From contig DASPGR010000323.1 in NCBI GenBank assembly GCA_035620515.1, positions 1-51,793 on the forward strand: 51,793 nucleotides of DNA, given 5' to 3'. A model generated the notes under the pieces. The model was not told the origin of the DNA, made no database searches, and saw only the letters and a list, made by a program, of their open reading frames with translations. The translations under genes and the position numbers were made by a program. This stretch comes from Burkholderiales bacterium. Its GTDB lineage: Bacteria; Pseudomonadota; Gammaproteobacteria; Burkholderiales; SG8-41. Positions 26,965 through 49,425 of the stretch are shown piece after piece. Each line of letters begins with the position of its first letter. Positions within the stretch are counted from its first letter, which is position 1.

Positions 26965-26987
26965 AAAAAAAAGGGGCTCGCGCCCCC
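26965..26987 (-). terminator. Intrinsic terminator/attenuator in the rpsB-tsf spacer
   Basis: The minus strand reads GGGGC-GCGA-GCCCC (5-bp GC stem, GNRA loop) followed directly by T8. It lies between the rpsB stop (27007) and the tsf start. Confidence 0.6.
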
Positions 26988-46140: not shown

Positions 46141-46940
46141 GGCGGCAGCAGGTCAAGGGAAGCGAGAAGCTCCCGGGTACGGCGCGGTGAGAGCTCGAGG
46201 TACTGGCCGCGCCGCAGCTCGCGCGGCAGCTCTAACGGCCCGAAACGAACGCGGATCAAACGGCTCACGGCATGCCCAAGTGCCTCGAACATGCGCCGCA
46301 CGACGCGGTTGCGTCCCTCTTTTATGGCAAGTCGATACCAGTGATTGGCACCCTCCCCGCCCCCGTCACGCACCCATTCGCACCGGGCCACGCCATCCTC
46401 CAGCCGCACGCCGGTGGCAAGGAGCCCCAGTTCGCGAGCGTCAAGGCGCCCCCGGACCCGCACTGCATATTCGCGCGCGAGCCCGTAGCGCGGGTGCATC
46501 ATGCGATTGGCGAGCTCGCCCGAGGTGGTCAGGACCAGCAGACCCAACGTATTGAAGTCCAGACGGCCGACGGAGAGCCACTTTGCGCCGCGCACCGGGG
46601 GCAGGTGCTGGAAAATGCTCGCCCGGCCCGCCGGATCCTCCCGGCTGACGATCTCGCCCTCCGGCTTGTGGTAGAGCAACACGCGCGGCAGACGCGGCTC
46701 GAGCGGCCGGCGCAGCGCCTTGCCTTTGACCCTGATCGCATCGCGCGGTCCGACGCGGGTTCCCACGCCGGCGGCTACGCCATTGACCGTCACCTCGCCC
46801 GCCCGCACCAGGACTTCCATCTCCCGGCGCGACCCGAGCCCGGCATCCGCCAGCACCTTCTGCAGCTTCTGCGTTGCGCCTGTCGCAATCCGCGCCGCTG
46901 CGGAGGGCGAGGGAGTCGGCCGGCGCTTCCACTCAGACAT
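46134..46940 (-). CDS. rluB: 23S rRNA pseudouridine synthase RluB-type (RsuA/RluB family)
   Basis: Track ORF trimmed to MSEWKRRP... (268 aa). S4 domain [15 protein letters not shown] and catalytic [14 protein letters not shown]. The start overlaps the recR stop (ATGTCTGA). Confidence 0.88.
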
Positions 46941-47529
46941 CGCGCCGTTCCGCCACCGCCTGGGCGAGTGTCCCGCTGTCGACATGCTCGAGCTCCCCGC
47001 CGACCGGCAGTCCCCGCGCAATGCGGGTGACCCTGAGTCCGCGCTCACGCAGCAGCTCTCCCACGTAATGCGCGGTTGCCTCGCCCTCGACCGTGAAGTT
47101 GGTTGCGAGAATGACCTCCCGCACAGTACCGTCCGTGGCGCGCTTCAAGAGCCGGTCGAGATGGATTTCCTTCGGCCCGATGCCGTCGAGCGGCGAGAGC
47201 GCGCCCATCAGCACGAAATAAAGACCGCGATAGCATTGCGCCTGCTCCATGACGAGGACCTCCCCCGGACTCTCGACCACGCACAGCTGCGTCGCGTCGC
47301 GCCGCCCCGATCCGCACAACTCGCAGACAGCCTCCTCGGCGTAGCTGTTGCACTTCTCGCAATGGCGGACGCGCTCCAGCACATCGCCGAGCGCGGCAGC
47401 GAGGCGCCCGGCGCCCGCGCGGTCGCGTTGCAGCAGGTGGTTCGCCATGCGCTGCGCCGAGCGCGGCCCCACGCCCGGCAGGCAGCGCAGCGCAGTGATC
47501 AGCTCCTCGAGCGCGGAAGGCGTCTTCAT
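46933..47529 (-). CDS. recR: Recombination protein RecR
   Basis: 198 aa with Hh[12 protein letters not shown], a C4 zinc finger CEKC...CELC and a Toprim domain. Confidence 0.96.
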
Positions 47530-47537
47530 CCCTCTCT

Positions 47538-47861
47538 TCAGAACGGGAGTTTCATCCCGGGCGGAAGCGGCAATCCGGCTGTCACGCCGGCCATTTTTTC
47601 CTGGACGGTCGCCTCGACGCGCCGGGCCGCATCGTTGAATGCAGCGCAGACGAGATCCTCCAGCATGTCGCGCTCGTCAGCGAGCAGGCGCGGGTCAATG
47701 GTGACCCGGCGGGTTTCATGCTTGCACGTCATCAATACCTTCACCATGCCCGATCCGGCCTGCCCTTCGACTTCCATCTGGCCGAGCTGCTCCTGCACGC
47801 GCTTCATGTTTTCCTGCATGAGCTGCGCCTGCTTCATCAGATTGCCGATCCCGCCTTTCAT
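47538..47861 (-). CDS. ybaB: Nucleoid-associated protein YbaB/EbfC
   Basis: 107 aa: [21 protein letters not shown]. Conserved dnaX-ybaB-recR order. Confidence 0.93.
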
Positions 47862-47874
47862 ATCTCCCGCTCCG

Positions 47875-49425
47875 TTACGTAGCCGGCTTGATCGAGGATT
47901 CGATCACCTCGCCGTCAAAGTTCTCCATCAAATCGCGCACAAAAGGATCCTGCTCGATCGCCGCGCACGCCTCGGACTGCCTTTTCTGCTCTGCTCGGTC
48001 GGCAACCGCGGCAGGCGATCCGGCAACCTCCGGGGAAAGCGCGATGACGAGACGCAGGGGGCCGCCGTAGTGACGCTCGAGCGCCGCCTTGAGGCGATCC
48101 TGGTAGGGTCCTTCCAGCAGGTGCTGATGCGCCTGGGCCAGCTTGAGTTCGATCCGCCCGCTCGTGCGCGTTGCCAGCTCACAATGCTGCGCCAGCATTC
48201 GTGCCGCCCCGCCAAGCCCGAGCTGCTCGACGAGCTGGTGCCAACCCGGGTCAGCTGCGTTTTTTTTTGAGTCGTCCGCGCCCGAGGGCCGGGCACCCTG
48301 CGCGGGCCGAGCTGCATCCCGGCGTGTTTCACCGCTCCCCTCGCGCGCGGGGGCAAACGCGCTCATGCGCAGGAGCGTCATCGTGAACCCTGCGTATTCA
48401 TCAGGTGCAAGGCCGAGATCGCTGCGCCCCTGGAGCGCGATCTGGTAATACAGCTGCAAATCCTCGGGGCCGAACTTGCCCGCGAGCTCCTCGAGCGCTG
48501 CGCGATCGGGCTCGCCAGGATCCGCGCCATCCGGAATCTGCTGCCGAAGAGCGAGCCTGTGAAAGAGCGTGCCCAGATCCTGGAGCGCCGTCTCGAACGA
48601 GAGGCTCAACCCCGCCATGCGGTCCGCCTCCGCAATCATGGCCGCGCCGTCGCCGGCGGCAAGCGCGCGCAATATCGCGTAGAGGTGCTCCTGGCCGACG
48701 GTTCCCAGCATGGCCCGGACGGAATCCTGCCCGACCGTGCCCGCCCCATGCGCGATCGCCTGGTCGAGGAGACTCAGCGCATCGCGCACGCTGCCCTGCG
48801 CCGATCGTGAGAGGAGCACAAGCGCCTCCGCGTCGTAACGAACGCCCTCCGCAGCGAGGATTTGCTGCAGCCGCTCCCTGATCTGCTCCCGCGGCACGAG
48901 CTTCAGGTTGAACTGGAGGCAGCGCGAAAGCACCGTGATGGGAATCTTCTGGGGATCGGTCGTCGCGAGAATGAACTGCACATGCTCGGGAGGCTCCTCG
49001 AGCGTCTTCAGCATCGCGTTGAAAGCCGAGCGCGAAAGCATATGGACTTCGTCGATGATATAGACCTTGTAGCGTCCGGCCGTAGGCGCATAGAGCGCGT
49101 TCTCGAGGAGTTCGCGCATGTTGTCGACCTGCGTATTGGATGCCGCATCGAGCTCGATCAGGTCGACGAAGCGCCCGGCGTCGATCTCGAGGCACGCGCT
49201 GCATTTGCCGCAGGGAGTCGCAGAGATGCCCGCCTCGCAATTGAGGGCCTTGGCGACAATGCGTGCGAGCGTGGTCTTCCCCACGCCGCGCGTGCCCGTC
49301 AGGAGGTAAGCGTGGTGCAGCCGCTGCTGATTCAGCGCATTGCTGAGCGCGCGGACGACGTGCTCCTGACCGACAAGCTCACCGAACGTCTTGGGGCGCC
49401 ACTTGCGCGCGAGGACCTGGGTCAC
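47875..49425 (-). CDS. dnaX: DNA polymerase III subunits tau (full length) and probably gamma (by recoding)
   Basis: 516 aa with Walker [10 protein letters not shown], Zn module [10 protein letters not shown] and the SRC motif VLSRCLQF. Confidence 0.96.
48251..48270 (-). other. dnaX: Candidate dnaX recoding site: A9 run (UCA AAA AAA AAC) with a -1-frame UGA three codons downstream
   Basis: The plus strand shows T9 at 48260..48268. In-frame codons are S386 K387 K388 N389. The -1 frame reads AAA CGC AGC TGA (stop at 48253..48251). Confidence 0.5.

Follow-up and report, generated by a model that had tools for sequence, protein, structure and literature searches.

The dnaX gene and its A9 run

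The window analysed here is the whole 51,793-nucleotide stretch of DNA. It belongs to a metagenome-assembled genome (MAG) of an uncultured organism, of 3.3 Mb and 64.8% GC in 373 contigs and 92% complete. The minus strand of the window encodes a 516-aa ORF which was identified as dnaX by the NCBIfam models PRK07994 (8.9e-212) and TIGR02397 (7.3e-129). Pfam matches on DnaX to DNA_pol3_delta2, the ATPase lid, gamma3 and tau_5 represent the clamp-loader ATPase, its lid, domain III and domain V, respectively; going by its family name, we take domain V to be the polymerase alpha-binding domain. The ybaB gene, followed by recR, is located downstream of dnaX on the same strand (minus). That one dnaX gene yields both tau and gamma is a textbook example of recoding, and the features that concern it in the window were as follows.

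47875-49425, minus strand: dnaX coding sequence, a 516-aa ORF whose zero frame encodes full-length tau (55.9 kDa)
48358-48732, minus strand: clamp-loader collar domain III, residues 232-356 (Pfam PF12169, 3.2e-21), the last domain common to tau and gamma
48247-48357, minus strand: Pro/Ala/Gly-rich linker, residues 357-393 (from the protein alignment), hypervariable in relatives except at the slip site
48260-48268, minus strand: slippery A9 run (template strand, T9); TC[A AAA AAA AA]C encodes S386 K387 K388 N389
48251-48253, minus strand: -1-frame TGA stop, two sense codons (CGC AGC) past the run
47890-48246, minus strand: tau domain V, residues 394-512 (Pfam PF12170 DNA_pol3_tau_5, 3.1e-13), found in the zero-frame product only
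48251-49425, minus strand: predicted gamma region, 391 aa and 42.4 kDa by translation, in which domains I-III (Pfam) are kept

Tau is short here (516 aa). Domain III and domain V are separated by a linker of only ~37 residues, and tau domain IV, which is the DnaB-binding region in E. coli, had no Pfam match. As domain V comes right after this short linker with no match to domain IV, gamma and tau would differ essentially by domain V alone. An antisense shadow ORF, also of 516 aa, was present opposite recR, ybaB and dnaX (46720-48270, plus strand) and ended exactly at the T9 tract (...VSCVFF, then a stop codon). Such a shadow ORF is typical of GC-rich DNA, and long ORFs here are no proof of genes.

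The coding strand at the run reads GAC TCA AAA AAA AAC GCA GCT GAC, which encodes D385 S386 K387 K388 N389 A390 A391 D392. Two in-phase heptamers, A_AAA_AAA and A_AAA_AAC, are contained in this sequence, and the -1 stop follows them three and two codons later, respectively. The -1 frame reads AAA AAA AAA CGC AGC TGA and gives a predicted product that ends in SKKKRS (residues 1-388 plus KRS; 391 aa). Within the linker the run sits at the C-terminal end, ~26 residues past LLRMSAFAP and five residues ahead of domain V. In this genome, no stop interrupts the +1 frame for 110 codons after the run. The original prediction, made from the window alone, had described the A9 run, its heptamer, the -1 codons, the position in the linker and a product of about 391 aa ending in KKKRS against a full-length protein of 516 aa, and all of these statements held.

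It had further been claimed that such a homopolymer is conspicuous in GC-rich coding DNA, which was borne out by counting. Runs of A8 or longer were found at two sites in the window compared to 0.22 expected. Genome-wide, there were only four A9/T9 runs and none longer; two of the three outside dnaX follow terminator-like hairpins and the third lies in low-GC3, probably non-coding sequence, such that dnaX is the only confident gene in the genome with an A9/T9 run. The slip site is made up of codons that are rare in the genome (AAA, 15.6% of Lys; TCA, 4.4% of Ser; GCT, 5.3% of Ala), and the probability of TCA AAA AAA ... GCT given the amino acids was ~6e-5 under the genome's own codon usage. 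Rare codons were also seen at the site in relatives, namely CCA (4.5% of Pro), TTA (0.4% of Leu) and GGT (8.1% of Gly). The other A8 run of the window (26965-26972, plus strand) has an ORF on either side and is no slippery site within coding sequence; on the minus strand it forms the T8 tail of a hairpin resembling an intrinsic terminator (GGGGCGCGAGCCCC, then T8).

Conservation of the run and of the -1 stop

Forty relatives were searched in all six frames, and dnaX was recovered from every genome containing the region; the contig of one genome, G014, stops just short of the dnaX run. Of the 21 dnaX genes of the genus that cover the site, 20 had a run of precisely nine A's, with the phase unchanged (xxA AAA AAA AA[C/G]). 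The run was flanked by C or T on its 5′ side and by C or G on its 3′ side, and its length was never 8 or 10. The heptamer ended in AAC in 18/20 genes and was A_AAA_AAG in two congeners (L005 and L011). Of 18 full-length genes, 17 had the -1 stop two codons past the run, and one had it three codons past. Elsewhere in these genes, at positions taken as controls, the -1 frame was open for a median of 75 codons (P(<=2) = 0.026). Past the run, the +1 frame was open for 9-68 codons in relatives and the control median was 25, showing no clear difference from controls. The original prediction had proposed, as a check, that related genomes be compared for the A-run and the -1 stop, and both are retained in nearly all genes of the genus. 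Two congeners (L026, G024:C214; L027, G004:C20) had a dnaX frame that was broken ahead of the run, at approximately residues 305-342, with the A9 run and the -1 TGA intact; these frame breaks are most likely assembly indels in the MAGs and not biology.

At the protein level, x-KK-[N/K] was found at the site in 117 of 120 metagenome protein-cluster representatives. The residue before KK was only S, P, L or I, for all of which A-ending codons exist. E, K or Q, residues which would make the run longer, were never seen at this position. A metagenome search by run length (A8-A11) returned at least nine dnaX contigs, all of them A9 among the matches listed, and the list was mostly of unrelated A8 sites. 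A recurrent context among the latter, gcgcagTCAAAAAAAACCGCGGTGA, was found in L203 (1081-1548, plus strand) and in more than 20 similar metagenome contigs (such as L145, L151, L152, L178, L204 and L232). It forms the end of a 155-aa ORF (...ERALARSQKKPR, then a stop codon) that is IS ORF-A-like, and another frame continues past the A8 run. This context is probably a classic IS slippage site that is unrelated to dnaX.

Errors of sequencing or assembly might have produced the A9 run, or it might be a tract that mutates readily by replication slippage (phase variation); the MAG is fragmented (373 contigs, 92% complete) and homopolymers are error-prone. However, 20 species-level genomes, all independent, had the same A9, as did separate contigs from metagenomes and Logan, at exactly nine among the matches listed, and this effectively refutes an artefact already. 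Phase variation is countered by tau being essential, such that heritable out-of-frame switching would be lethal. We therefore find this explanation, in either form, scarcely credible.

The linker around the site was too variable for alignment between species. Within the site, the third-base entropy was 0 at the xxA codon (S/P/L), at both Lys AAA codons and at the NNT codon (D/G/A/V), and in the flanking codons it was 1.0-1.7 bits. The invariant T of the NNT codon is the first base of the -1 stop. In L141, a Logan contig from a further relative, the zero-frame Asp was changed to Asn (GCT AAT) and the -1 stop was still present, as TAA. As the third bases were invariant where the amino acid varied, the constraint is, on this comparative evidence, one that acts on nucleotides and not on amino acids, and the A9 site is under selection.

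A non-recoding reason for conserving the run, with the -1 stop as a by-product, could be a basic KKN/KKK patch or a protease site where domain V begins, or a function of T9 in the DNA itself. The K-K-N/K residues are indeed conserved in the protein too, and D/E ahead of a conserved Trp would favour GAN codons, which supply two-thirds of a TGA. Against this, the rare AAA codon (15.6%) was exclusive at both Lys positions in 20/20 genes, third-base A was fixed under S/P/L and third-base T under D/G/A/V, the stop was kept as TAA where D became N, and the site coincides with the tau/gamma boundary of other bacteria. With these observations a non-recoding reason appears highly improbable. The original prediction that the organism would make a gamma-like product by ribosomal and/or transcriptional slippage, on the other hand, is supported by the conservation of the run and the stop, the frozen synonymous positions and the retention of the stop as TAA.

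In the dnaX tree, G009, a congener without the run, branched off first within the genus. L142 also lacks the run but was nested within the clade; it reads TCG AAA AAC AGC and has retained a relic TGA. This topology indicates that the A9 signal was gained once, later than the G009 split, and lost once (L142). With two lineages of the genus lacking it, the A9 run is not essential. The genes from other families of the order were mostly without the run and without any other in-phase heptamer, and no plausible alternative in-phase slippery heptamer was found in the run-less relatives. An A10 run in a different phase was present in the linker after domain III of three genes, from L029 (G039, another family of the order), L041 (a Methylophilaceae MAG) and L043 (a Burkholderiales MAG), that of L029 being at the aligned position of the A9 run of the genus. 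Stops were close in both alternative frames of these three genes (4-13 codons). Their design is thus two-sided, as in Thermus, whereas that of the window's genus is one-sided.

Comparison with known dnaX systems

In Thermus thermophilus, transcription of dnaX is programmed to slip on a run of nine A's (Larsen et al. 2000, as summarised in PMC1088944 and PMC5009743). The site described here is similar in that a sense-strand A9 run follows domain III of a single-ORF dnaX whose zero frame encodes tau, and in that a short product is predicted from extra-A mRNAs which would end a few codons on and would need no ribosomal stimulators. The Thermus parallel drawn in the original prediction thus stood for the A9 run; it did not extend to a nearby +1-frame stop. 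Thermus has nearby stops in both non-zero frames, whereas here a stop is near in the -1 frame only and the +1 frame is open for 110 codons. The host also differs, as it is a mesophilic-type GC-rich betaproteobacterial MAG and not a member of the Deinococcota, and slippage is predicted here from sequence.

In E. coli, Salmonella, Neisseria and Vibrio, dnaX has a -1 programmed ribosomal frameshift at A_AAA_AAG (Recode-2; PMC3711429 Fig. 1), and the E. coli type uses a Shine-Dalgarno (SD)-like element and a stem-loop (PMC5009743; PMC3711429). The present site likewise sits just past the clamp-loader core, with an in-phase lysine heptamer and a -1 stop within one to three codons, and the predicted product is without the polymerase-binding C-terminus. 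Unlike in the E. coli type, the site is preceded by no SD-like element at a distance of ~10 nt and followed by no stem-loop, the heptamer ends in A or C and not in G in 18/20 genes, and there are two tRNA-Lys species and not one. The likeness to E. coli that had been proposed is therefore confined to the position in the gene; the stimulators are absent and the tRNA-Lys set differs. For both the Thermus and the E. coli families, the first defining feature was found at this dnaX site and the other testable ones were absent.

Two further systems were compared. In two-ORF dnaX genes with A7-A10 runs, the zero frame encodes gamma and tau requires slippage, which has been read as transcriptional realignment (Antonov et al. 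2013, PMC3711429). The window's gene shares with these a poly-A tract at the tau/gamma boundary, but it is one uninterrupted 516-aa ORF with domain V in frame and tau in the zero frame. In Caulobacter crescentus, gamma is produced from tau by ClpXP proteolysis (10.1101/2022.11.10.516041). A C-terminally truncated DnaX beside tau is predicted here as well; the Caulobacter mechanism, however, is post-translational and has no nucleotide signal. By analogy, the run-less relatives (G009, L142 and the other families) may use Caulobacter-type proteolysis to make gamma.

The search for stimulators gave consistently negative results. An SD-like 4-mer was present between -24 and -4 in 2/20 genes compared to a control rate of 0.21, revealing no SD-like stimulator. 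Fold energies were no better than those of shuffled sequences (mean z -0.37 downstream and -0.11 upstream), and the RNAalifold consensus around the site contained 0 pairs. The only recurrent helix, between CCGCG past the run and GGCGCG ~55 nt downstream, was rejected; it had no covariation, its pairing was at the shuffled level and it is missing from the window's own sequence. The original prediction had likewise reported no convincing downstream hairpin, and folding, RNAalifold and the covariation check all came to the same outcome. The site itself, its exact conservation and the absence of E. coli-type stimulators are all direct observations.

The tRNA-Lys set was taken from congeners, in which both tRNA-Lys(CUU) and tRNA-Lys(UUU) are present; ARAGORN found 33 tRNAs and no tRNA-Lys in the window's own MAG. 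A match to a CUU-type anticodon-arm/T-arm pattern was found in this MAG at G000:C85:7394-7423 (L123), ~200 nt upstream of tRNA-Pro(TGG). Congeners have tRNA-Lys(CUU) at this place upstream of tRNA-Pro(TGG), and ARAGORN makes no call there in the MAG; the absent tRNA-Lys(CUU) call may be a defect in the MAG sequence. E. coli has a single tRNA-Lys for AAA and AAG which pairs more strongly with the -1-frame AAA than with AAG, and this underlies the shiftiness of A_AAA_AAG (PMC5009743). With a dedicated tRNA-Lys(CUU) in the genus, the E. coli basis for AAG shiftiness should not apply.

Proposed slippage by RNA polymerase or by the ribosome

The explanation we favour, with a probability of about 0.58, is that the A9 run is a selected recoding site which yields a truncated gamma-like DnaX alongside tau, mainly via transcriptional slippage and with a possible ribosomal contribution. 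That slippage occurs, how efficient it is and which machine slips we infer from the features of the site. When RNA polymerase moves past the T9 template, the entire 9-bp RNA:DNA hybrid would be rA:dT, which would let the transcript realign and pick up one extra A. The resulting A10 mRNA, read normally, would be translated as ...S K K K R S followed by a stop, and A9 (or A12) mRNA would be translated as tau. The ribosome may also play a part; by slipping into the -1 frame on the in-phase A_AAA_AAA, it would arrive at exactly the same protein. The predicted product would keep domains I-III and lose only domain V, as does gamma elsewhere.

The polymerase is favoured over the ribosome because none of the nine A's varies, whereas seven would suffice for either heptamer. 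In the fourth codon of the slip site, only AAN occurs, encoding Asn or Lys, the sole amino acids with AAN codons. Nine is also the length of the RNA polymerase hybrid (9-10 bp) and, according to published work, the number at which bacterial RNA polymerase begins to slip efficiently (PMC5009743; PMC1088944). On the A9 run of Thermus dnaX, slippage adds at least one A, in diminishing proportion, as far as these accounts describe it (PMC5009743; PMC1088944); the largest aberrant class would therefore be the one with a single extra A, read here as ...SKKKRS and a stop. The lack of an SD-like motif and of a conserved hairpin also counts toward the polymerase over the ribosome. Against the polymerase route, only the -1 frame is closed at this site, whereas Thermus and the A10 relatives (L029, L041, L043) close both frames quickly. 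Additionally, the perfect in-phase heptamers within the run speak against a polymerase-only reading and make a ribosomal share possible.

Alternatively, gamma could be made mainly by stimulator-free -1 programmed ribosomal frameshifting on A_AAA_AAA or A_AAA_AAC, with K387 in the P site and K388 in the A site, where tRNA-Lys(UUU) would re-pair perfectly in the -1 frame; RNA polymerase slippage would then be minor. The chief argument for ribosomal frameshifting is that the conserved nearby stop exists in the -1 frame only, the +1 frame being unconstrained, and Antonov et al. 2013 take one-direction conservation as a hint of ribosomal frameshifting (PMC3711429). In-phase heptamers exist, two congeners (L005 and L011) have A_AAA_AAG itself, and some utilised frameshift sites need no stimulators (PMC5009743). 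However, shifting in E. coli is far more frequent at A_AAA_AAG than at A_AAA_AAA or A_AAA_AAC (PMC5009743), and the presence of tRNA-Lys(CUU) beside tRNA-Lys(UUU) should remove the basis of the high shiftiness of AAG in that species. Both the SD-like element and a conserved downstream structure are absent, and a heptamer does not account for the last two A's being invariant, or for a length of exactly nine. We regard frameshifting as the main route to gamma as possible but unlikely.

A different view of the same asymmetry is that the genus has a distinct one-sided design, a stimulator-free A9 tuned such that one added A, the most frequent error of the polymerase, and a -1 slip of the ribosome give the identical ...SKKKRS end, and the +1 frame is left unconstrained. 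This proposal is doubtful and is offered tentatively. As a whole, the support drawn from sequence comparison is unusually clean, and the open +1 frame stands out as the one interesting deviation.

A literature search found no description of an A9-type dnaX site in Betaproteobacteria. The only betaproteobacterial example of dnaX recoding named in the literature found was the A_AAA_AAG frameshift of Neisseria (PMC3711429). The site adds a dnaX case with good comparative support, from a GC-rich betaproteobacterial genus that is uncultured. Baranov et al. 2005 pointed out that sites at which slippage truncates the product are difficult to confirm by comparing sequences, and the frozen synonymous sites, together with a stop that is retained as TGA or TAA, supply such validation for a truncating site. 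A consequence for annotation is that genomes of the genus should carry two dnaX products. Why cells need gamma is still debated (10.1101/2022.11.10.516041). If the one-sided design is true, the clade would be a natural experiment on why bacteria need gamma and on what replaces a lost run, because the signal appears to have been gained once, after the G009 branch, and lost once, in L142.
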